Source: a virus
Taxonomy: Duplodnaviria; Heunggongvirae; Uroviricota; Caudoviricetes
Virus record (IMG/VR): IMGVR_UViG_3300037312_000757
DNA: 64,000 nucleotides
Strand: one strand, 5' to 3'
Part shown: positions 4,197-63,027 of the stretch, piece after piece
Layout of the letters: the number at the start of each line of letters is the position of its first letter
Position numbering within the stretch: the stretch's first letter is position 1
Position numbers and translations under genes: made by a program
The notes under the pieces: model-generated
What the model saw: the letters and a program-made list of their open reading frames with translations, nothing else
Told to the model about the DNA's origin: nothing
Databases searched by the model: none

Positions 4197-4559
4197 TTAA
4201 TCGTTGAAGTCATCCTTCAAGATCTTCTTGCCGCTCTTCGGTGCAGTATTAACCGGAGCGGCAGTTTGTGACTCAGCTGACTTCTGGGCTAGAGCCTTAG
4301 CTTGGGCCATGACTTCAGCTGGGGTCAAAAAGGTATCGGGTGTAACTTCCTTCAGGCTGACGCGGCGGACAGCCTTCGGGTTCTGATTGTGATATTCCTG
4401 TGCCACTTCTTCACGACGTTTCAGAATCTTACCACCAGGGCCGAGAATATCGCCACGGGCATTCATATTTGCGTTGCCGATCGCGATTTTTGTCTCGTTC
4501 TTGGTCAAGATTGGTGTGACATCAAGACTCTTACCTTTCATCGTTTTCACGCGGTTCAT
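4197..4559 (-). CDS. hypothetical protein
   Basis: 120 aa; GNANMNARGDILGPGG; AGGAG upstream. Confidence 0.75.
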   Translation of the reverse strand: MNRVKTMKGKSLDVTPILTKNETKIAIGNANMNARGDILGPGGKILKRREEVAQEYHNQNPKAVRRVSLKEVTPDTFLTPAEVMAQAKALAQKSAESQTAAPVNTAPKSGKKILKDDFND

Positions 4560-4606
4560 AGGAATCTCCTAAAGTAATCTACTGTTTTATTTATAAAGGT
4601 GATTCT

Positions 4607-5143
4607 TCAGTCTCTGATGAATTCCTTGATATCCAGCTCATACAGGATGGAGTCAACCTTGTGTACACCGATCAAATAAAGAGCATAGCTGGCAACTGAG
4701 GAGCCACGCCCTACACCCCACCACACGCCTTCCTCACGCAGGGTAGAGGTCATGTAGATCAAGAAGCTTAGAACGTCTTCCATGGCATGCTTGCGAAACA
4801 GGTCCATTTCCTCAGCGATCCTCGCTCGTTCAATGTCAGTTTTGCAGCGTTCCAGCAGCCAGGCTTCTACATCAACAACTTTTTCATCTTCTGGCATCAG
4901 CCAATGCCGTTGCCGTGCTTTGTGAAAGTCCTCGGGTGAGATATCAAGTGGTTGCGCAAAACTCATGCTCTTTTCGGGAGCGTCAAATGTTTTGCACCAC
5001 TTGTTATAAGTCTCGATTTTCTCGGACTGTTCAGCTAGGGCGTCTGGTGTTTGGAAATGTCCGTTGTAGAACATTTCCAAAACGCCTTGTTCGTTTAGAA
5101 CAACTCTACCCCAGTCATCAATCTTCTGTGTCGCTATTGTCAT
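4607..5143 (-). CDS. DNA polymerase III alpha (DnaE)-like fragment
   Basis: WGVGRGSSVASYALYLIGVHKVD matches the DnaE GxGRGS region; only 178 aa. Confidence 0.8.
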   Translation of the reverse strand: MTIATQKIDDWGRVVLNEQGVLEMFYNGHFQTPDALAEQSEKIETYNKWCKTFDAPEKSMSFAQPLDISPEDFHKARQRHWLMPEDEKVVDVEAWLLERCKTDIERARIAEEMDLFRKHAMEDVLSFLIYMTSTLREEGVWWGVGRGSSVASYALYLIGVHKVDSILYELDIKEFIRD

Positions 5144-14754: not shown

Positions 14755-15318
14755 TTATTTGAATATTGTTTTTCTTATTATGGAATTGTACTCATCCGCC
14801 AACGCCATACTCTCACCAACCATTTCCATAAAATAGGTGAGTATGTCTGCTTCATCCAGCTGAAGCGTTGCTTCTGAAGCGCCGCACTCACTTACAATTT
14901 TCATATTGTGAGTTTTGGCTATTTTCATCATAAACCCGTTTCTCGTCAAGCAGTAGCTCATTAGAATTTTCACTCGACGATTACGGCATACAACCATTGC
15001 GCGTTCAAACAACTCGGTACCAAGACCTTTGCCACGGTGCCCTTCTTCAACACTTAGACCAATCTCGGCACGTTCTGCGAAGAATGAATGTGCGTCCCCT
15101 AGGAACGCAATCTCGCAAGCGGCAACAACATTATGATACTCGTCAAACGCTGCCAATACAAGACGCTGAATGCCATCTTTAGTATTGACATGGTTTAAAA
15201 TCGCATCATCGGTTTGCTGACACCCAAAACGAAGATAGCGATCATCTGCATTTAATCTACACAAATGATCGCTATAATGTTTGAGCTCATGTGCATAGAG
15301 CCTTCTTATAGTATTCAT
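14755..15318 (-). CDS. GNAT-family acetyltransferase
   Basis: RYLRF, AEIGLSVEEGHRGKGLGTELF, N..MMKIA. Confidence 0.88.
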   Translation of the reverse strand: MNTIRRLYAHELKHYSDHLCRLNADDRYLRFGCQQTDDAILNHVNTKDGIQRLVLAAFDEYHNVVAACEIAFLGDAHSFFAERAEIGLSVEEGHRGKGLGTELFERAMVVCRNRRVKILMSYCLTRNGFMMKIAKTHNMKIVSECGASEATLQLDEADILTYFMEMVGESMALADEYNSIIRKTIFK

Positions 15319-15321
15319 CGT

Positions 15322-15773
15322 AATTCTCAGGTAATGCTTACCGCTGAGAGTAGGCGGCTATCTGTTGCTGGCCTTTTGTTGGATTATGCGCCACCAACTC
15401 CCTATTTGGTGGGGTTCCCAACGTGTCCACTAGCAGCGCTCACTCCGCTAGTATCCAGCGCGACTGCCTTTTTAGACTGCGAGCAATGCAGTAATGCTAC
15501 GGCTACTAACCACTGATCATGTGGTGGAAACAAGGTGACAGCTTGCTTCCGTTAAGTCGCTTTATCGCCATAACACCGAGTAAATGTCTAGCCGCAATCT
15601 ATGCAGCGCGTTCCATGGTTTGGCGTGGGCGGCCGAAACCAAGGGGATGAACGCTAGGTCACTGGGACCAAAGACCTTATGGTTTACTCTCGTGCTCCGC
15701 CCCTTATATGACGGAATACACTTGCCATATTAGTTGCGCCTTTGTTTCGGCGCGTCGTCTACATCACAGACTC
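15322..15773 (-). ncRNA. large (~450 nt) structured non-coding RNA or 5' leader
   Basis: No convincing ORF; more than 10 complementary stems including a pseudoknot; TTGACG...TAGAAT promoter immediately upstream (15775-15802). Confidence 0.7.
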
Positions 15774-15804
15774 TATTCTATACAACTGGCAACCTACGTC
15801 AAGC

Positions 15805-16491
15805 TTACTTTTTAGAACGTGAGTTATAGATGGCAAACTTAGACAGCTTCTGGCGAATCGAGACTTTGTTCTTGTTGGCTTCTTTACGCTCAGCTTTCAC
15901 TTCATCTTTAATTGAATCATGAGTGGCGGTGAAGTCAACTGCCATTTGCTTCACGGTTTTCTTGAACTCATCTGTCACAAGATCACCATACGAATTGAAT
16001 GCGTTTTCAAAACGATCAAGTTCGCGTTTCAGAGAAGCAAGACGCTTCAACTTTCGCTTCTGTTCAAGTTTCTCTTTTTCCTTGTCTTCTGACTTGGACA
16101 GGATTTCGAAGATGGCTTGCGTTGACATGCGATCGTAATCAATGTCCTTGAACACATAACGCAATTGTGATTCGTAGCTTGACCAGTAGTATGAATAACC
16201 ACGGGTGGTTTGTTGATTTATCTTGAAATTGCCACCAGCATTTACAATAGCCATCAATGCTTCAGCTTCTTTATCGTCGGAGACTTCAAAGATCATCGCA
16301 TCTTTCATTTCATTTTCGATTGACTCGCACAGCTTGGCAAACTTATGTCGCTGACCATCTTCCCAGATGCAATGATATGTGCTAGTTGGTGCAAGCTTCT
16401 TGAACTTTTCAAAGTCAAAACGCTTTTTCAGCTCAGGGTAATTCCAGTTGGAAAGATCGCCGCGTTCCGGCAGGAAAACAAACAAATGCAT
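15805..16491 (-). CDS. paralog-family-like domain plus coiled coil
   Basis: FEVSDDKEAEALM; same layout as 13532 and 14149 (MHLFVF start, coiled-coil end). Confidence 0.7.
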   Translation of the reverse strand: MHLFVFLPERGDLSNWNYPELKKRFDFEKFKKLAPTSTYHCIWEDGQRHKFAKLCESIENEMKDAMIFEVSDDKEAEALMAIVNAGGNFKINQQTTRGYSYYWSSYESQLRYVFKDIDYDRMSTQAIFEILSKSEDKEKEKLEQKRKLKRLASLKRELDRFENAFNSYGDLVTDEFKKTVKQMAVDFTATHDSIKDEVKAERKEANKNKVSIRQKLSKFAIYNSRSKK

Positions 16492-16545: not shown

Positions 16546-16977
16546 TCAGTTTTGCACTTGAGGGAAGAACTTCGGTACCAACGTGATCGGTACAAACGGC
16601 TCAATCAACTTGAAACCGTGCGCCGCAATGCAGGCGTTACTGTGAAAGGGCTTTGCACCCTTCTCACGATCGATACTCCACGTGATGTGGAAAGTACCAT
16701 TATCAGGTCGATACAGCACGCCATCAACACGGACAACCAAGCATTGCACGCGATTATCGTCACAGGACACGCCTACAACTTCACCACGCGTCTCGGTCGG
16801 GAGCGGATAGTCCGCAGTGACGCCCGCTTTGAGCGTCACGTGGTGAGCTATTACGTCAGTATAAACAGGAGGGATGAGTTCCAGCAATTTATCGCGGTCG
16901 TAAGCTGGTAATTCCCATCCAACGTAACCACGTTGGGGTTTATCAGCCGTTACCGTTTGATCCATTGCTTCTCCCAT
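16546..16977 (-). CDS. 2H phosphoesterase-like protein
   Basis: two HxT motifs (HHVTL, FHITW). Confidence 0.7.
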   Translation of the reverse strand: MGEAMDQTVTADKPQRGYVGWELPAYDRDKLLELIPPVYTDVIAHHVTLKAGVTADYPLPTETRGEVVGVSCDDNRVQCLVVRVDGVLYRPDNGTFHITWSIDREKGAKPFHSNACIAAHGFKLIEPFVPITLVPKFFPQVQN

Positions 16978-17563
16978 TCACATTGAAGTCCGCGTCATAC
17001 AACCCCATCTCTTGATTGATGGCAGTCATCTCTTTCAGCGGTGTATAGTCTTGCACAGCCAAGTGAGCATTGTCAAGGTCTTCTTGCGAACGGCAGTACA
17101 CAACTGGCTGGATCTTATCGCCAGTCACTTCTTCGATGATCTTGGCGATGATACCCCAGTCACCGTTAGCCAAACCTGCACCAATCAAGGGCAGACCAAC
17201 TTCCATTGGTCCCACACTTAGGTATTCATCCAGCGCTTTGATCGTGTTTTCAAAAGCCTCACGAATGCCGAGGTATTTGACGTACACTACGTTCGGATCA
17301 CGACCGTAGAACTCTTGCGTGATTGCGTTTAGCACGAGACGATCACCGCCAGAAATTGTATCTTTGCCAAGAGCAGATACAACTTCACCAACTTTCAGAC
17401 CATTAAGTTGGTGATATTTGACGTAAGCTTCGTAAGCAAATGGGCAACGAACACGCATAGTTGCCGCAACGCCTGAGCCCATCACACCTTGAGCATTACA
17501 GCCATGCATGATTGCAAGCCCAGAATGCTCGAACAAGTCTCCGATTCTGTATTCAATTTTCAT
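16943..17563 (-). CDS. Macro domain (ADP-ribose processing) protein
   Basis: GDLF, HGCNAQGVMGSGVA, PLIGAGLANGDW. Confidence 0.92.
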   Translation of the reverse strand: MKIEYRIGDLFEHSGLAIMHGCNAQGVMGSGVAATMRVRCPFAYEAYVKYHQLNGLKVGEVVSALGKDTISGGDRLVLNAITQEFYGRDPNVVYVKYLGIREAFENTIKALDEYLSVGPMEVGLPLIGAGLANGDWGIIAKIIEEVTGDKIQPVVYCRSQEDLDNAHLAVQDYTPLKEMTAINQEMGLYDADFNVNGRSNGSNGNG

Positions 17564-26471: not shown

Positions 26472-28034
26472 TCAAGCCTTGCTGTCATCCTCGACCATAT
26501 CAAGCACGCGTTTGATTGCTGATGGTGTAACTGGCTTAGTCAGATGGTCATCGAAACCTGTGCTCAGCGAGCGCTGTCTCGCTTCTTCGCCACCAAAACC
26601 TGTCATTGCTGATATAACTGTGTGCGCAAGCTCGGGCATGTTTTTCAAGTACTCACGCACTTGAAAACCGTCTAAACCCGGCATAGCCAAGTCTAACAGA
26701 ACTATGTCAGGTATAAAGGCTTTTGCGACAGCAATAGCAGTCCTGCCATCATATACAGCCCGCGTCTCATGCCCCATCATACCCAAGTAAAGAGCCATGC
26801 TGTCAGCCGAGTCCTTGCTGTCATCGACAACTAAGACCTTGTAGACAGGATGCTCTGAGACCTTACCGTTGCTATCTACAAAGGGGCCAGCAGCTTTTGG
26901 AATGTACTTAGGTAAGCGGATAGTGAACGTACTACCACGGCCCCTGCCAGGGCTCATTGCGTCAATAGCACCACCATGCATTTCAACTAGCGATCGGCAC
27001 AACGTAAGACCAATCCCCAGACCACTTTCACTTGGATTGATCTGAGCGTCTTCTTGCACGAATAGGTTGAATATTTCTTTCAACGCATCGACAGTCATAC
27101 CACGCCCGTTATCAGTCACTTTGATGATAATACTACGCTCATCATCGTGTACAGTCAGGATGATATGACCCCCGTTTGCGGTGAATTTGCTTGCATTATT
27201 GAGCAAATTGCTGATAACCTGAACCAATCGCGTCAGGTCACCATTAACAATGAAGTCACGCTCAGGCACGTCAACGTCGAATTGCTGTCCTTTTGCGCTA
27301 AAGTAATGACGTGTGGATTCGACGCTTCGTGCAACAGCTTCACGCACGTCAAGCACCTTGCGGTTCAACGTAATTTTGCCGGTAGTGATGCGACCTACAT
27401 CAAGCAAATCATCGACCAATCGCGTCATGTGCGAGAGTTGACGGTCGATTATATCACGACAGTTTCGAGTCGTTTGAGACAACGACGGCTCGATTTGCAT
27501 GATACTGATTGCATTACGTATTGGTGCTAAGGGGTTGCGCAGCTCGTGCGCGAGCATGGCGAGAAACTCGTTCATGCGAGCACCAGAAGCCTCGAGCTCT
27601 TCGAGGCGTTTTCGCTCACTCATGTCGCGTTCGATCTTCGCATAGCCCACCAACTCACGCTGGGAGTTGTGAATGGCGGTTATTGTTATCCCGGCCCAGA
27701 ACATGGTACCATCACTTCTGACGCGCCACCCCTCGTCAGTAAAATAGCCCGTTTCAGCGGCTATTTTCAATTCATGTTCGGGCCACCCATCTTTTACATC
27801 GGTACTAGTGAAGAAAACTGAGAAATGCTTGCCGATAATCTCATCGGAGGTGTAACCGTTAATCTTCTGAGCACCGGCATTCCACGATGACACTATGCCA
27901 TCAGCATCTAGCATGAAGATTGCATACTCTTCAACAGTTTCCACAAGTAACCGATAACGATCTTCTAACGGTACTTGCATAACTTCTTGATTTACTTCAG
28001 TGGGCGAGTTCTCGCGCTTGTCGGGAATCTCCAT
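26472..28034 (-). CDS. PAS-domain hybrid sensor histidine kinase with receiver domain
   Basis: PAS (SWNAGAQKINGY), H-box LAHELRNPL, N-box NLLNNASKF, DNGRG, GLGIGL, receiver VVDD...LLDLAMP...KP. Confidence 0.95.
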   Translation of the reverse strand: MEIPDKRENSPTEVNQEVMQVPLEDRYRLLVETVEEYAIFMLDADGIVSSWNAGAQKINGYTSDEIIGKHFSVFFTSTDVKDGWPEHELKIAAETGYFTDEGWRVRSDGTMFWAGITITAIHNSQRELVGYAKIERDMSERKRLEELEASGARMNEFLAMLAHELRNPLAPIRNAISIMQIEPSLSQTTRNCRDIIDRQLSHMTRLVDDLLDVGRITTGKITLNRKVLDVREAVARSVESTRHYFSAKGQQFDVDVPERDFIVNGDLTRLVQVISNLLNNASKFTANGGHIILTVHDDERSIIIKVTDNGRGMTVDALKEIFNLFVQEDAQINPSESGLGIGLTLCRSLVEMHGGAIDAMSPGRGRGSTFTIRLPKYIPKAAGPFVDSNGKVSEHPVYKVLVVDDSKDSADSMALYLGMMGHETRAVYDGRTAIAVAKAFIPDIVLLDLAMPGLDGFQVREYLKNMPELAHTVISAMTGFGGEEARQRSLSTGFDDHLTKPVTPSAIKRVLDMVEDDSKA

Positions 28035-40885: not shown

Positions 40886-41941
40886 TTATTGGGTCCCGCA
40901 CGTATCTTTGCCTCCCAATTGATTGGGAACAATCGGCTTGCCGTGCATCCAATGCTTGACCGTTTGCACATGATTGGGGCGAACATACTTGGCTACACTG
41001 TGGCGGAAGTCCGCATACGAGAAGCCGTCAGCAATACGCAGCACGTAACCTTCTTCGGTTACGGTGTCAAGATCAGTAGCCAGCTTACGCAGCTTTTGTT
41101 CATCGTAGATGCCATCGTAAATGACTTCTACGGGCGTGATGCTCATCAGCTCAAAATACTCTAGCGTGAGGTTCCAGGGCAAACAGAAGTTCTTGTCATC
41201 CCAGATCGAGAAGCCATAGAAGTACGACTTCAAGTCAGGATAAAAGATCGAATGCTCAGCGAACAAGTTTTCACCGCAGACGCGCCATCCCTCTGGAATG
41301 TCACCACAGATCTGACCCCAGAAGTTCTTCACCCAGTTGCGGCTAGGGTGATTACGACTGTCCACGCTACGTGCATGGATGTAGTCAGGATACATGGTTG
41401 TATTCTCGCCATCCATTTTCTTGGTGGCAATCACACGCTTGCCTGCGAAGTTGGCATTGCAAACATTCGGCGGCAGAACACGGTCATCGCTCGATGGCGT
41501 TGGTGACCAGGGCAGATGATATGTGCGCTGATACTTGACGTAGTGGGAGAACAACCCCAACACGCCACCTTGGGTAAGAATCTTCTGCACGCTTTCATCG
41601 TTGAACAGTTCGCCCTTCAGCCGTGTACCGTTCGGCTGAACCGGGTTGCCCCACTTGTCGTAGACTTGATCGTCGTACAAATGCGGCGGAATGATCACCT
41701 TGGTGATACCGCAAGCATGACGCACGTCTTCGACACTGATCTCAGTGGTCTCACACTTGATGTGATGTTCACTACAGACCGAGGCTCCATTGTCCAAATA
41801 ATAGCCACCGTCCGGCCATAGCCGACGTTCGAGAATGTGATGTGCGTCCTGCGCAGGTTTGTCGCAGAACACGCATTTGTTATTGTCACGCGCAAAAACT
41901 CCTTCGCGAAATTGATCACGCGTCAATAGCTTTTGACTCAT
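40886..41941 (-). CDS. HNH-like Zn domain fused to ATP-dependent RNA ligase
   Basis: CVFC...DAHHILER...VCSEHH; ligase motifs KMDGEN, CGEN, FYGF, EGYV, KYVR. Confidence 0.85.
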   Translation of the reverse strand: MSQKLLTRDQFREGVFARDNNKCVFCDKPAQDAHHILERRLWPDGGYYLDNGASVCSEHHIKCETTEISVEDVRHACGITKVIIPPHLYDDQVYDKWGNPVQPNGTRLKGELFNDESVQKILTQGGVLGLFSHYVKYQRTYHLPWSPTPSSDDRVLPPNVCNANFAGKRVIATKKMDGENTTMYPDYIHARSVDSRNHPSRNWVKNFWGQICGDIPEGWRVCGENLFAEHSIFYPDLKSYFYGFSIWDDKNFCLPWNLTLEYFELMSITPVEVIYDGIYDEQKLRKLATDLDTVTEEGYVLRIADGFSYADFRHSVAKYVRPNHVQTVKHWMHGKPIVPNQLGGKDTCGTQ

Positions 41942-42332
41942 TTTCTTTTCTCCATTCACGTGTGAGACCCAGCAGATATTTGGCCTCATCACGCATAACA
42001 CCCCAGATTGGTGTGCAGTTATGTTGTTCAACGTGCTTGATGAAGTTTTCGAGCTCGCAAATCAAGACTTCATTTGATGGATTCTGGTGAGCACGATCGA
42101 GAACTGCGCTGTAAGTTGACAGCACGGCAGCACAATCAAGATGACCGTCACGATGATTTGTCGCACTGACTTCTTGCTGTTTGTTGCGAATCAGGAAGTA
42201 CACAGGAAACTTGGCATAAAGAACTACCTTCCGTGAATCCTGATTCGCCAACTTTTCAGGGTTGTACCACAGCTTGAAGCGGCGCAACTTGATGTCGTTC
42301 AGCCTATTGTCGATGTCTTTGAATGTGGTCAT
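41916..42332 (-). CDS. hypothetical protein
   Basis: GGAG RBS before MTTF. Confidence 0.65.
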   Translation of the reverse strand: MTTFKDIDNRLNDIKLRRFKLWYNPEKLANQDSRKVVLYAKFPVYFLIRNKQQEVSATNHRDGHLDCAAVLSTYSAVLDRAHQNPSNEVLICELENFIKHVEQHNCTPIWGVMRDEAKYLLGLTREWRKENESKAIDA

Positions 42333-46801: not shown

Positions 46802-46886
46802 TGGTGCCCCGGGACGGACTCGAACCGTCAAGCCTTTCGGCGGCAGATTTTGAGTCTGCTGTGTTTTCCAGTTTCACCACCGGGGC
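46802..46886 (-). tRNA. tRNA-Leu(CAA)
   Basis: GCCCCGG acceptor, GCAGA-CT-CAA-AA-TCTGC, long variable arm, TTCGAG, ACCA end. Confidence 0.95.
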
Positions 46887-50530: not shown

Positions 50531-51874
50531 TTAGCGACCGATTGCCATGTACATAAAGCCAAGATCAGTAAGCATTTCAGGCTCAAACAAGTTCCGACCA
50601 TCGAAGATCGCCGCTTCGCGCATACGTTCCTTCAGAACCTTGAAATCTGGTGACTTGAATTCCTTCCACTCTGTCACAATAAACAGACCACACACATCGT
50701 ACGCCGCATCATTTGCATAGCTGCAGAAGTCGATACGTGTGAGCTCTTCGGCAGTCAGATCGAGTGCCAACACACGTTTTGCTTCATCAGTGGCCACAGG
50801 ATCGTAGACACGGACCTTACAACCAAGATCCAACAAGTCCTTGATGATTGTGCGACTTGGTGCTTCGCGCATGTCATCTGTGCCTGGCTTGAAGGCAAGA
50901 CCCCAGATTGCCAACGTCTTACCGGCAATCGACTCGCCATAATAACGCTTTGCCTTCTCAACCAGGATATGCTTCTGTTCCTCGTTGACTTGCTCAACGG
51001 CCTGCAGAATGCGTAGATCGACGCCATTGCTGTCTGCCGTTCGAATCAATGCCTGGACGTCCTTTGGGAAACAAGAGCCTCCATACCCGCATCCAGCGTA
51101 CAGGAAGTGATATCCAATGCGAGGGTCGGATCCAATTCCACGACGTACTGATTCAATGTCAACATCAGTAGCCTCAGCCAAACGTGACAATTCGTTCATA
51201 AACGAAATACGTGTGGCGAGCATGGAATTTGCTGCGTACTTTGTGAATTCGGCCGAGCGAATGTCCATCGTGATGATGCGGTCGTGGTTGCGGTTGAATG
51301 GTGCATACAACTGCTTCATCATGTCAAGCGCTTTGGTCGCATTGGGGTTGGCACCAAGAATGATGCGATCAGGACGCATGCAGTCATCAATAGCCGCACC
51401 TTCTTTCAGGAATTCCGGGTTGGACACAACATCGTAGTCAACCGAGAAGTTGCGCCTCAGCAGTTCACCCATAATCGCGTCCTTGACTCTGTCACCTGTA
51501 CCAACTGGCACGGTCGACTTGTTGACAACCACTTTGTATCCGAGCATGTGTTTGCCAATGTTCTTTGCCGCGTGCAAGACATACTTCAAATCAGCTGAGC
51601 CGTCTTCATCTGGTGGGGTACCAACTGCGATGAATTGAACGTCGCCGTGTTCAACGCTTTCTTCGATGTTGGTTGTAAACCGGAGCTTACCACGTTCAAC
51701 GTTGCTCTTGATCAGTGCATCAAGCCCTGGTTCGAAAATTGGTACACCACCGTTGTTTAGGATATCGATCTTTCGATGGTCAAGATCAAGACACAATACG
51801 TCGTTGCCAACTTCAGCCAAACATACGCCAGTCACGAGGCCAACGTAGCCCGTTCCAATCACTGTTACTTTCAT
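50531..51874 (-). CDS. ugd: UDP-glucose 6-dehydrogenase
   Basis: [42 protein letters not shown]. Confidence 0.97.
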
Positions 51875-54849: not shown

Positions 54850-54926
54850 TGGTGCCTCGAGAGGGAATTGAACCCCCGACCTCACGGTTTCGGAAACCGG
54901 CGCTCTATCCACTGAGCTACCGAGGC
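54850..54926 (-). tRNA. tRNA-Arg(CCG)
   Basis: GCCTCGG acceptor, GGA with A20, TT-CCG-AA loop, TTCAATT, ACCA end. Confidence 0.9.
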
Positions 54927-57391: not shown

Positions 57392-58753
57392 TTATACGTT
57401 CCAGTATGATCTGGTTTTTGCAATGTATTCGGCCAGTTTGGCTGGCTGGTTGTCAGTGAGAATCTTGTACTCTGGTGTGTACATTGACATCTTGCGGGCT
57501 TTCGCAACAGGAACACCCATACCGATAGCCCAGAACATGTTGGTTGTCACCATACGCTCGCTACATGCAGGATCGGCATTCAATTCCCATTCCAGCTTCA
57601 GAGCATCATAGTAATCCATGATGTCCGTTTGCCAGTGGTTAGGTTTGTCTGCGTATGGAAAGCGATATCCATACTCTTCAGCTGACTTATCAAACTCGCT
57701 AGGCCAGTCGCGGCCGTCACGTGCAATAGTCAACGCACAGAATTTCCACGATACTGTGGTAAAATTGTCCTTAATCCATTGATGTGTGCGACGATTGCTT
57801 TCCAGCGGCTCACCAGGTAATCCAATTATTAGAGAGAACGCGGCAGATATCTGCTTTCCCCACGTATCATTATACAGCTTTGGTAACCACTCTTCAGCAT
57901 GTTTTCCACTCCAACCCTTACCAATGCTCTTGCTTCCTGTTTCATGTAATGATTCAATACCATGAAAACCCGTTAACAATCCTGAATTTGGCAAACGTGT
58001 GATCTGATCTTCTTTTGACCATATCAAATCAGCACGGAGGTATCCACCCCAGCCAAAGTCATTGTCATGTTTTTTCATTGCTTCAAGTAGCTCAATGCGA
58101 GCATCACTCTCATTGATCGTGTCATCAATAATTGCAGTTACACTTGATGCACCAAGCTTCTTGCGTGCATCCCAATCGAGCATCAAATTGTCAATCGTTC
58201 GCTCATATGTGCCAGCTTTGCGACCAATAAGTGGATAACCACAGAACTTGCAACTGAATCTGCAACCACGACCAAGGGCTAAAGGTAGAACTTCACCAGG
58301 AAGAATCGCGTCACCCTCCCAGAATTGTTCCTGCTCGAGTGATGGATGCCATATTTGCCCAATACCGTGATTGAACGCCTTGATTGCCGCGTCTTCGCCG
58401 AAGCTTTTGATTGTAATATCGTAGTCGCCCGGTTTTACGATGTAATGACGAGCACCACCAATCACCCATTTGATGTCAGGACGCATTTGCTTTAGCAATA
58501 GTCGTGCGTTGGTTACGGCTTCAGGTTCAGCGTTCCCCCAGAAGGTACTACTGACTCCCACGTATCCGTTTTGGATCACTAACTTACTAGTGACTTCTAC
58601 TAGTTCGTTGATGTCCCAACGATCAATCCACTCCAGGACCTGAGCTTTACAACCAGCTTTGCGCAACCAACTTGCAACAGAATAAGGACCCAGAGTTCGC
58701 ATCAACCAATGATTGCGGTTGATGCTGGGGTTCCAAATCACTAATTTGTTCAT
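57392..58753 (-). CDS. radical SAM protein (B12-binding-like N-terminus)
   Basis: GRGCRFSCKFC, DDTIN, YLRADL, GIES, IIGLPGE. Confidence 0.88.
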   Translation of the reverse strand: MNKLVIWNPSINRNHWLMRTLGPYSVASWLRKAGCKAQVLEWIDRWDINELVEVTSKLVIQNGYVGVSSTFWGNAEPEAVTNARLLLKQMRPDIKWVIGGARHYIVKPGDYDITIKSFGEDAAIKAFNHGIGQIWHPSLEQEQFWEGDAILPGEVLPLALGRGCRFSCKFCGYPLIGRKAGTYERTIDNLMLDWDARKKLGASSVTAIIDDTINESDARIELLEAMKKHDNDFGWGGYLRADLIWSKEDQITRLPNSGLLTGFHGIESLHETGSKSIGKGWSGKHAEEWLPKLYNDTWGKQISAAFSLIIGLPGEPLESNRRTHQWIKDNFTTVSWKFCALTIARDGRDWPSEFDKSAEEYGYRFPYADKPNHWQTDIMDYYDALKLEWELNADPACSERMVTTNMFWAIGMGVPVAKARKMSMYTPEYKILTDNQPAKLAEYIAKTRSYWNV

Positions 58754-61863: not shown

Positions 61864-62140
61864 TCTCAGCAGACTCCGTGTATGAAATACCAAGCGTTTC
61901 CCAACGTAACTGTTCAGCATCATATACCTTTTGCCAAGCCGCCTGCAGCTTAGGAAACAATGCATCAGGTACCACCTCTACAATGTAGAGGACACCCTTG
62001 TTGGCACCATGATATGTGACTGAACGATCAATGAATGCGGTGTCGATAAAGCTCAACAGTCCTTTGTATGCGTCTGAAGTGAAGTACGCCATCGCATGTT
62101 CGAAATTGTGTTTCAGTGTACGAGTAATGAGTATCACCAT
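61844..62140 (-). CDS. hypothetical protein
   Basis: 98 aa; overlaps both neighbours. Confidence 0.6.
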   Translation of the reverse strand: MVILITRTLKHNFEHAMAYFTSDAYKGLLSFIDTAFIDRSVTYHGANKGVLYIVEVVPDALFPKLQAAWQKVYDAEQLRWETLGISYTESAENVVDQK

Positions 62141-63027
62141 TTCTCCAATTTGTGAAAGTTTGTTCTTATGTACGGTATATGTGTCTGTGTCGAATACACC
62201 GTTTCCTTCGTCTTAAAATTCTCTAGCATCTCATCAGCAGGAATGAACATCCAACTTTCGCTATAACCATGTTTGAGAAAAATGCGTTCACGCATTTCGT
62301 TGTCGATATGCTCGTAACCTTCAAAACCATGAAACTTCTGGCGTTGCTTAATGTCAATGTCAAACCACTGTTTGTATTGCAGATGCTTTCTATCCCGTCC
62401 GTCACTGACACCAAACGTATGGAAATCAGTAAACTCTGGGCTACTAATTAACGATGCAATCATTTCGGGTGTCGAACGTAATGGCGACACCGCTCCGTTG
62501 AAACCTTGCAAGTAGGCTAAGATAGAATAATCTTTTTCGCGCTCTTGAATGTGAGTTGCACCGTTGACAATCTTAGGCTCAGGATGGATTGCGGGAAGGA
62601 TTGTGAATCGTTCCATGCTCTCAACCATAGCCATGTATGCCTGGATGGGCAGTTGTGGGCTAGTGCATTTGTATGCAGCAACAAAATCCCAGAACCACTT
62701 TGACTCCCAGAAGACATCGAGATTGATGTCCTTGTAGACAAGCTTGCAGTGCGAGTCAAGCTCAGGCACATAGGCAAGGTCGTGTTCATTTACACATTTG
62801 CCTTCGTACAGGAATCGATACGCAACACCAGTCACATCTTTGCCATGTCCAGCCATCCACTTGGCCATCACTTCACTATCAGCTCCACCACTCACAAGAA
62901 CGGTAATACTTTGCGGATACTGATCGGCGATCCTTGCCAACTCTTCGTTGGGTGTACCGAAATCTTCAGCTTTACCCAACGTGATTGCGAAATGATCGTT
63001 GTCAATCTGGTGGTATATGTTGTGCAT
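62134..63027 (-). CDS. PP-loop (adenine nucleotide alpha hydrolase) family protein
   Basis: VLVSGGADSE; SPQ; RQKFHGFE. Confidence 0.75.
   Translation of the reverse strand: MHNIYHQIDNDHFAITLGKAEDFGTPNEELARIADQYPQSITVLVSGGADSEVMAKWMAGHGKDVTGVAYRFLYEGKCVNEHDLAYVPELDSHCKLVYKDINLDVFWESKWFWDFVAAYKCTSPQLPIQAYMAMVESMERFTILPAIHPEPKIVNGATHIQEREKDYSILAYLQGFNGAVSPLRSTPEMIASLISSPEFTDFHTFGVSDGRDRKHLQYKQWFDIDIKQRQKFHGFEGYEHIDNEMRERIFLKHGYSESWMFIPADEMLENFKTKETVYSTQTHIPYIRTNFHKLEKW

Follow-up and report, generated by a model that had tools for sequence, protein, structure and literature searches.

A structured RNA upstream of a GNAT acetyltransferase gene in a megaphage as a probable reduced member of the GOLLD lineage

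The 64,000 nucleotides (nt) of DNA analyzed here, referred to as the window, are part of IMG/VR virus record IMGVR_UViG_3300037312_000757, a record of 523,836 bp with direct terminal repeats that represents a megaphage of ~524 kb. The minus-strand genes around the locus under study are tightly packed, with a single large gene-free gap in the neighbourhood, bordered upstream by an open reading frame (ORF) of unknown kind and downstream by the gene for a GNAT acetyltransferase. This gap contains no protein gene but a structured, promoter-driven, multi-domain non-coding RNA of the stand-alone type, with a pseudoknotted core, which in all likelihood belongs to GOLLD, a lineage of large phage RNAs, as a compact, divergent and strongly reduced member. 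GOLLD is among the very few natural RNAs known to form closed cages without protein. The features that delimit the locus are:

15805–16491, from the gene map: 228-amino-acid ORF of unknown kind, the upstream border of the gap
15319–15804, minus strand: the gene-free gap, 486 nt
15775–15802, minus strand: sigma-70-type promoter, TTGACG (15802–15797), a 16-nt spacer and TAGAAT (15780–15775), with 10/12 matches
15341–15772, minus strand: the whole RNA, ~430 nt, its presumed 5′ end set a few nt past the -10 box and its last conserved helix ending at 15341
14755–15318, minus strand: GNAT acetyltransferase, 187 amino acids (Pfam Acetyltransf_1, E 7e-7), the downstream border of the gap
15225–15275, minus strand: perfect 17-bp hairpin (15275–15235) with the U-tract tail CUUCGUUUUG (15234–15225), within GNAT codons 15–31, from a terminator scan

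A first-pass annotation had proposed a stand-alone, promoter-driven structured RNA that interrupts no gene, and this description holds: the RNA is intergenic, and all the elements that were listed, the promoter included, lie on the minus strand where they had been placed. Folding of the single sequence, one of the checks suggested at that stage, gives a modest excess over shuffled sequences (z = -2.34), so that the case for a structured RNA rests on relatives. Homologues of the GNAT were found at 59–68% identity. A gene-free gap of 470–600 nt directly precedes the GNAT gene in every fetched contig of the 59–64% homologues that reaches far enough upstream, and the gene map of the 68%-identical homologue shows a gap of 459 nt. 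The gaps align, with an invariant TAGAAT and invariant blocks parted by variable stretches, and define a family of 8 distinct sequences, namely the window and seven metagenomic ones (L095, L096, L100, L102, L103, L253 and the partial L101). TAGAAT shows no variation in any relative that extends to it, and TTGAC, where present, is retained. In 8/8 family loci, the RNA is the direct upstream neighbour of GNAT, at a distance of ~20–35 nt and with no terminator in between; in the window, the GNAT gene starts 22 nt past the last RNA helix, and the terminator scan found nothing between the end of the last helix, P27 (15341), and the GNAT ATG (15318).

Covariation among these homologues, the other suggested check, gives a clear result. 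It was counted on a MAFFT alignment of the 8 sequences over the helices P17, P23, P24, P26 and P27 and the pseudoknot, all of which belong to the 3′ domain described below. In this domain, 96.9% of the cells are paired, compared with 25–52% in controls with slid partners, and 15/37 pairs show compensatory double changes, compared with 0–3 in the slid controls; none of 500 shuffles reached the observed values, and RNAalifold agrees. The strand is the minus strand because the G-U pairs would be A-C on the other one.

No family was found in the gap at the curated thresholds of Rfam. GOLLD (RF02032) is the sole significant match, with 44.7 bits and an E-value of 2.3e-10 (901 nt searched), or 3.1e-11 in the window's own 524-kb genome record, compared with the E < 1e-5 used for inclusion by Kretsch et al. 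(PMC12286853). Among the other Rfam families, group I introns and ROOL included, nothing was found at E ≤ 10 beyond three chance-level matches (snR93, mir-890 and Histone3), two of which fall on the hairpin inside the GNAT gene. The RNA had been attributed to an unrecognised class, with a hit to a known family named as the result that would speak against it. Such a hit was obtained in part, as it is significant but lies under the curated gathering cut-off of 150 bits; together with the colinearity described below, it leaves an unrecognised class unsupported.

The GOLLD-aligned part holds the most conserved GOLLD strings (UAC-stem-GUGGA, GGGAA...AUAAUCC, CAAAAG and the UCUCA loop), and three independent checks rule out a chance motif. 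The DNA pattern GTGGANANNNNGGGAA..ATAATCCNNCAAAAG occurs at 11 IMG/VR loci, all of them canonical or near-threshold GOLLDs (143–307 bits, 9/11 above 150). All the family relatives match Rfam GOLLD, at 43.7–80.4 bits. Hidden Markov models (HMMs) that use sequence only match in both directions: among ~250 fetched loci, the family model picks out canonical GOLLDs alone (E 1e-12 to 2e-4), and a model built from 18 canonical GOLLDs recovers all family members (E 2e-13 to 2e-6). A looser motif, GGGAA..ATAATCCNNCAAAAG, was discarded: it occurs at 91 IMG/VR loci, of which only the 11 known ones were confirmed as GOLLD by HMM, and the rest are probably chance matches of an 18-base pattern with a variable gap.

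When the GOLLD consensus and its structure line are set beside the family, a one-to-one map is obtained for 15576–15341, i.e. the 3′ ~235 nt of the RNA are colinear, element for element, with the conserved 3′ domain of GOLLD. With the helix numbers P17–P27 deduced from the junction names J17/18, J17/22 and J24/26 of Kretsch et al. (PMC12286853), the elements are:

15494–15576, minus strand: P17-equivalent long-range stem, GUGUUAUGGC (15576–15567) with GCCGUAGCAU (15503–15494), enclosing J17/18, P18 and P19
15552–15566, minus strand: J17/18 block GAUAAAGCGACUUAA, corresponding to the GOLLD consensus GAAAGgugaCUAAU and including the 5′ half of the pseudoknot, GCGACU (15560–15555)
15526–15550, minus strand: P18 hairpin, GGAAGCAAG/CUUGUUUCC
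15509–15525, minus strand: hairpin ACCAC/GUGGU in the P19/20 position, then an invariant AGUAG at 15507–15503
15476–15492, minus strand: P22-equivalent hairpin, ACUGC-AUUGCUC-GCAGU
15460–15468, minus strand: block GGCAGUCGC, with GGCAGUCG invariant in the family, including the 3′ half of the pseudoknot, AGUCGC (15465–15460)
15367–15459, minus strand: P23, GCUGG (15459–15455) with CCAGC (15371–15367), enclosing P24 and P26
15424–15452, minus strand: P24 hairpin ACUAGC...GCUAGU (15452–15429), with a UAC flank and GUGGACA (15430–15424) after it
15378–15422, minus strand: P26, GUUGG (15422–15418) with CCAAC (15382–15378), with GGGAA at 15419–15415 and AUAAUCC at 15387–15381
15391–15412, minus strand: extra hairpin CCACCAA/UUGGUGG in the P26 loop, present in short-type relatives but not in L095 and L103
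15341–15378, minus strand: CAAAAGG (15378–15372), the 3′ strand of P23, a linker, and P27, CCGC/GCGG with the loop CUACUCUCA (15357–15341)

The order is that of GOLLD throughout: P17, J17/18 (GA(U)AAAG-5 nt-CUUAA), P18, P19, AGUA, P22 and the J17/18 pseudoknot with the strand before P23, followed by the 3′-terminal core, in which P23 surrounds UAC-P24-GUGGA and P26 with its GGAA...AUAAUC, and by AAAAG and P27 with its UCUCA loop. The P17-equivalent is a stem of 10–11 bp (11 pairs, 6 compensatory, 95.5% paired), and cmscan on the relative L095 puts it at the enclosing stem of the GOLLD model. P24 (8 pairs, 4 compensatory) corresponds to GOLLD UACuuccg...cggaaGUGGAuA, P26 (3/4 pairs compensatory) to agaggGGAA...AUAAUCccucu, and CAAAAGG and P27 to AAAAG and GguGUAaUCUCAgcC; in P23 and in P27, one pair is G-C in 5 sequences and A-U in 3. 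P18, P19 and P22, which were misaligned by MAFFT, were folded one sequence at a time. The P18 and P19 region forms two adjacent hairpins in 8/8 sequences despite their differing sequence, and P22 is one hairpin in 8/8, its stem taking the versions ACUGC/GCAGU, AACGC/GCGUU, AAGGC/GCCUU and ACUGA/UCAGU among relatives. GCY occurs without exception in the P22 loop (15481–15487) and complements the invariant GGC (15466–15468) located just 3′ of the hairpin. Canonical GOLLD pairs its P22 loop with AGG on the 5′ side (L22-J17/22), and the arrangement in the family may be the same L22 pseudoknot moved to the other side.

The GCGACU/AGUCGC pairing, proposed in the first-pass annotation, is fully borne out: its 6 pairs are 100% paired in all family sequences, the first being G-C, G-U or A-U, and it crosses the corrected P17 stem, so that the pseudoknot is real. 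Complementarity is kept in five sequence versions spanning the family, the intermediate RNA of contig L105 (GCGGC/GCCGU; see below) and canonical GOLLDs (consensus gugaC/Gucac; GUGUC/GACAC in L004), which identifies it as GOLLD's own junction-strand pair. The other crossing helix had been drawn with the wrong strand. GCCGUA (15503–15498) had been paired with UAUGGC at 15729–15724, whereas it belongs to P17 and its partner is the second copy of UAUGGC, at 15572–15567 within GUGUUAUGGC. AUGG of the first copy (15728–15725) pairs locally with CCAU (15682–15679); in L100, a G-to-A change gives GUAG/CUAU, compensated in the local partner, with the distal strand unchanged. Two further pairings were proposed by RNAalifold on the full-length alignment. 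UGCUC/GGGCA was rejected, being broken in the window where GAGUA/UACUC is kept; the strands of GUCUUU/AAAGRC are both invariant and hence carry no covariation signal either way. Unpaired runs of C (CCCC or CCUC) and of G (AAGGGG or GGGAG) occur in every family member, one or more of each, in the window at 15642–15648, 15702–15709 and 15398–15405; in the relatives, from L095 to L253, these runs occupy different loops in each member, as expected of a movable kissing contact.

The 5′ part of the RNA is far more variable and comprises, in the window:

15578–15774, minus strand: variable 5′ domain, ~190 nt, with the conserved start AGAGUCUGU (15774–15766)
15771–15757 and 15753–15736, minus strand: two 5′ hairpins, GUCUGU/GUAGAC and GCGCC/GGCGC
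15715–15696, minus strand: conserved hairpin UCCGUC/GGCGGA with the loop AUAUAAGG
15689–15683 and 15584–15578, minus strand: GAGUAAA and UUUACUC, which close a three-arm multibranch

For the 4 short-type members, RNAalifold predicts 35 pairs in the 5′ domain, 14 of them compensatory, and the multibranch closure is GAGUA/UACUC in the window and GAGCA/UGCUC in the other short-type relatives. Conservation does not extend to the 5′-most hairpins, which vary among relatives in both sequence and shape, the short-type domain starting with one or more variable hairpins with an A-rich loop. L095, L103 and L253 have a different 5′ domain, ~120–135 nt longer, and the long-type RNAs measure ~530 nt. In known GOLLDs, the 3′ domain is conserved and the 5′ domain varies (PMC12286853; PMC12990946), and the present RNA, with its dissimilar 5′ domain, fits this pattern; the Rfam model covers the 3′ domain only.

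Solved GOLLDs include env-38, 833 nt, a 14-mer cage (PDB 9MEE; PMC12286853), and that of Streptococcus agalactiae, 700 nt, a 12-mer (9L0R; PMC12990946). In the window, P17 encloses only 63 nt (15566–15504), all taken up by J17/18 and two hairpins, so that the P20/P21 multistem (model ~213–285), to which the kissing loops L20, L21a and L21b belong, cannot be accommodated; cmscan deletes this module in the alignment of L095. Neither does the first long hairpin with the disordered, A/U-rich variable linker (model 1 to ~130), which in GOLLD can hold tRNA, have a counterpart; a single nt (G 15577) lies between the multibranch closure and P17, and L095 aligns this part at low posterior probability only. 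Such transfer RNA (tRNA) genes inside the GOLLD linker were seen in L008, L010 and L012 (in L012, a tRNA at 4329–4401 within a GOLLD at 4255–4730), and L010 additionally carries a transfer-messenger RNA gene and a long tRNA array.

A construct of the S. agalactiae 3′ domain (P14–P27, 375 nt) folds and assembles alone, mainly as a decamer (PDB 9LMF), and removal of parts shifts its stoichiometry (PMC12990946); the 3′ domain in the window is a still smaller, natural version. The construct keeps P14, L15, P20 and P21, which are used by all four interfaces of the decamer, L14-P21′, L15-L20′, L24-P21′′ and L21-L21′′, and the env-38 14-mer has additional L21a and L21b kissing loops (PMC12990946). 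Three of these four interfaces need P21, which the window RNA lacks; the fourth needs L20 and L15, where it keeps only a hairpin with a non-conserved loop and no recognisable P14 or L15. Furthermore, the P24 loop is not conserved in the family, unlike the GOLLD consensus gaAAA, the tetraloop of the L24-P21′′ contact, and the extra hairpin in the P26 loop is another departure from GOLLD. In the env-38 structure, P23 and J24/26 are the pairing partners of L27, which also touches P18, P22 and J17/18 (PMC12286853). Since the remaining elements are those tied together by L27, we take the RNA to be the tertiary hub of GOLLD, devoid of the cage-contact periphery. Absence of P21b and other stems is known to alter stoichiometry, and the natural variation described comprises loss of P21b, P9 and P11a-c (PMC12990946); in the literature searched, neither a GOLLD form without P20/P21 and the linker nor GOLLD together with jumbo phages or megaphages is mentioned. 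ROOL, found in phages and prophages and forming 8-mer or 6-mer cages, is likewise a large ornate RNA expressed from phage genomes; its secondary structure is unrelated to that of the RNA described here.

Several observations weigh against assignment to the GOLLD lineage. A score of 44.7 bits is below a third of the Rfam cut-off, and by Rfam's rule the RNA is not a GOLLD. From promoter to P27 it measures ~430 nt, compared with ~700–830 nt, i.e. about half the GOLLD size; the P20/P21 multistem and the first hairpin with its linker are missing; and HMMs detect no similarity between the 5′ domain, of either type, and the 5′ regions of canonical GOLLDs. GOLLDs are generally located in or beside tRNA islands, a usual if not obligatory setting, and the tRNA genes closest to the gap are at 46805–46886 and 54853–54926 (31 kb off). 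The helix numbering is deduced from junction names, both ends of the RNA and the terminator function of the GNAT hairpin are presumed, and the family is small, its 8 distinct sequences falling into two 5′-domain subtypes, many of them possibly from one sampling campaign. The far sub-threshold score, along with a 5′ half unlike anything searched, would suit an independent class of RNA whose likeness to GOLLD is confined to a short, convergent motif. We consider this quite improbable, given that about ten elements are common to both, in the same order and with the same helices, junction sequences and pseudoknot, that intermediates exist (L095 and L103 at 79–80 bits, L105 at 77 bits and ~830 nt), and that the HMMs match both ways. 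The RNA is, in addition, phage-encoded, as GOLLDs are in phages or prophages.

The first-pass annotation had seen in the crossing helices the P3/P7 order of group I introns. On this analogy, the RNA would be a ribozyme of group I type or a group I intron in decay. The pseudoknot is real, and a long-range stem crossed by a second helix is the sole likeness to subgroup IA; the two helices are, however, GOLLD P17 and the GOLLD pseudoknot, and the proposed P3 had the wrong partner and is unsupported by the relatives. There is no match to Intron_gpI (RF00028) even at E ≤ 10, whereas the same tool finds a genuine group I intron in L105, and the RNA is intergenic and, as the first-pass annotation had already remarked, has neither exons nor a G-binding site; this interpretation has a negligible probability. 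According to the main rival, the RNA serves above all as a 5′ leader that acts in cis on the GNAT mRNA, a GOLLD-derived fold co-opted for attenuation together with the hairpin and U-tract inside GNAT. The constant position directly before GNAT, with no terminator between the two, speaks for a leader, as do the conservation of the GNAT-internal hairpin only where the RNA abuts GNAT, and the RNA or large gene-free gap that is still found near GNAT homologues of 47–50% identity. In L105 and L106, however, the homologous RNA is equipped with a promoter and a terminator of its own, with two ORFs between it and GNAT, so that a leader role is not required of the RNA. Canonical GOLLDs, too, stand alone (PMC12286853), and an attenuator would need far less than a 430-nt fold of several domains with a conserved tertiary hub. 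We therefore hold a chiefly leader role to be unlikely. It is compatible with descent from GOLLD, and L105 speaks against cis-regulation as the sole role.

Within the GOLLD lineage, reduction from a full-size ancestor would be the simplest reading of the sequences, because an extended family block, GGCAGUCGNNCUGNAUAC, is common to the full-size GOLLDs L156, L161, L200, L226, L228 and L246 (152–214 bits) and the GC-rich L210, and because the ~830-nt RNA of L105, located beside a GNAT of 47% identity, is an intermediate that keeps part of the multistem and the first hairpin. The GGCAGUCGNNCUGNAUAC block is not present in other GOLLDs. The family motif GGCAGTCGNNCTGNATAC was found at 25 loci in IMG/VR, with 0 family members, and gave at least 120 matches in the metagenome collection, where all of the full-size GOLLDs just named, and no further reduced member, are among the matches listed; a GNAT-based locus search in IMG/VR gave no relatives. 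L105 is a 96-kb contig of an NCBI assembly, with the GOLLD-like RNA at L105:1293–2168; its group I intron (56 bits, Rfam cut-off 50) is ~4 kb downstream, at L105:6209–6413. In the metagenome contigs L161, L200 and L226, canonical GOLLDs occur as tandem pairs ~0.85–1 kb apart on the same strand, and tRNA genes follow in L200.

Unlike in known GOLLDs, the GNAT gene follows directly and contains a terminator-like hairpin. This hairpin is present in 8/8 family loci and is not found in the GNATs of L105 and L252, which keep the peptide DRYLRFG and in which the RNA is not directly upstream. Among degenerate codons of invariant residues, 10/15 are identical in all 8 sequences within codons 15–31, compared with 5/60 elsewhere (Fisher p 7.5e-6), and these frozen codons therefore indicate selection at the nucleic-acid level. 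The hairpin is a candidate terminator of the RNA, possibly overridden by ribosomes translating GNAT, or a candidate processing site, and the true 3′ end of the RNA may be at about 15225.

The RNA would thus be transcribed from a host-type sigma-70 promoter and would consist of two parts, a lineage-specific 5′ domain of ~190 nt and a GOLLD 3′ domain of ~235 nt stripped of its peripheral modules. It would fold into the GOLLD core and, like GOLLD, would serve as a structural RNA during infection; the ideas advanced for GOLLD include expression during lysis, ribosome pull-down and encapsulation (PMC12286853). Its assembly state would have to be other than that of the known cages (10-, 12- and 14-mer): either a monomer or an assembly held by new contacts. 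Transcription probably continues beyond the GNAT start codon, and the transcripts would then end, or be cut, at the hairpin and U-tract in codons 15–31, with GNAT expressed by read-through. In its strongest form, which we put forward tentatively and regard as somewhat doubtful, this proposal describes a natural minimal GOLLD that has lost the P21 module and kept only the L27-centred hub, and whose 3′ end is set by a translation-sensitive terminator in the first 31 GNAT codons. If such an RNA were a monomer or small oligomer, the cage would be dispensable for the core function of the family; alternatively, it could represent a new type of assembly, via its own 5′ domain and the C-run and G-run loops. 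An embedded terminator would couple the output of the RNA to expression of the GNAT enzyme.

As to the surroundings, the matches of the GNAT in Pfam and NCBIfam are to generic acetyltransferases only, and PHROGs gave none. Upstream of the gap, a macro-domain protein (16943–17563) shows weak DarG-like similarity in NCBIfam (E 7e-9) and also matches PHROG 335, 'phosphatase'; the sole match of the neighbouring ORF, 16546–16977, is an unnamed PHROG, a phage family with no known function. The window also encodes a hybrid PAS histidine kinase with a receiver domain, an RNA ligase, a UDP-glucose dehydrogenase, a radical-SAM protein and a protein with a tRNA methyltransferase-type HUP domain (26472–28034, 40886–42031, 50531–51874, 57392–58753 and 62134–63027). 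No close GenBank phage to the window was found, and blastn of the gap against 50,697 GenBank phages gave zero matches. Among public sequencing runs, the stretch is contained in two rhizosphere metagenome DNA runs (share of sampled words 1.00 and 0.94) and, with only a third of the words, in a soil metagenome DNA run; no RNA runs are listed.

A pared-down relative of this kind would mark the part of GOLLD that evolution treats as indispensable, the L27-centred hub of P17, P18 and P22–P27, and the cage-contact modules appear optional. It would extend the GOLLD family to megaphages above 500 kb with DNA in rhizosphere metagenome runs, and it suggests that the Rfam cut-off hides a tail of real GOLLD relatives, with 44–80 bits among those found. 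The conserved partnership with GNAT, together with the terminator-like hairpin in the GNAT codons, would offer the first genetic handle on function. At ~430 nt, the RNA is a target small enough for probing and mutagenesis, and the reduced form would permit a direct test of whether GOLLD needs a cage for its role.

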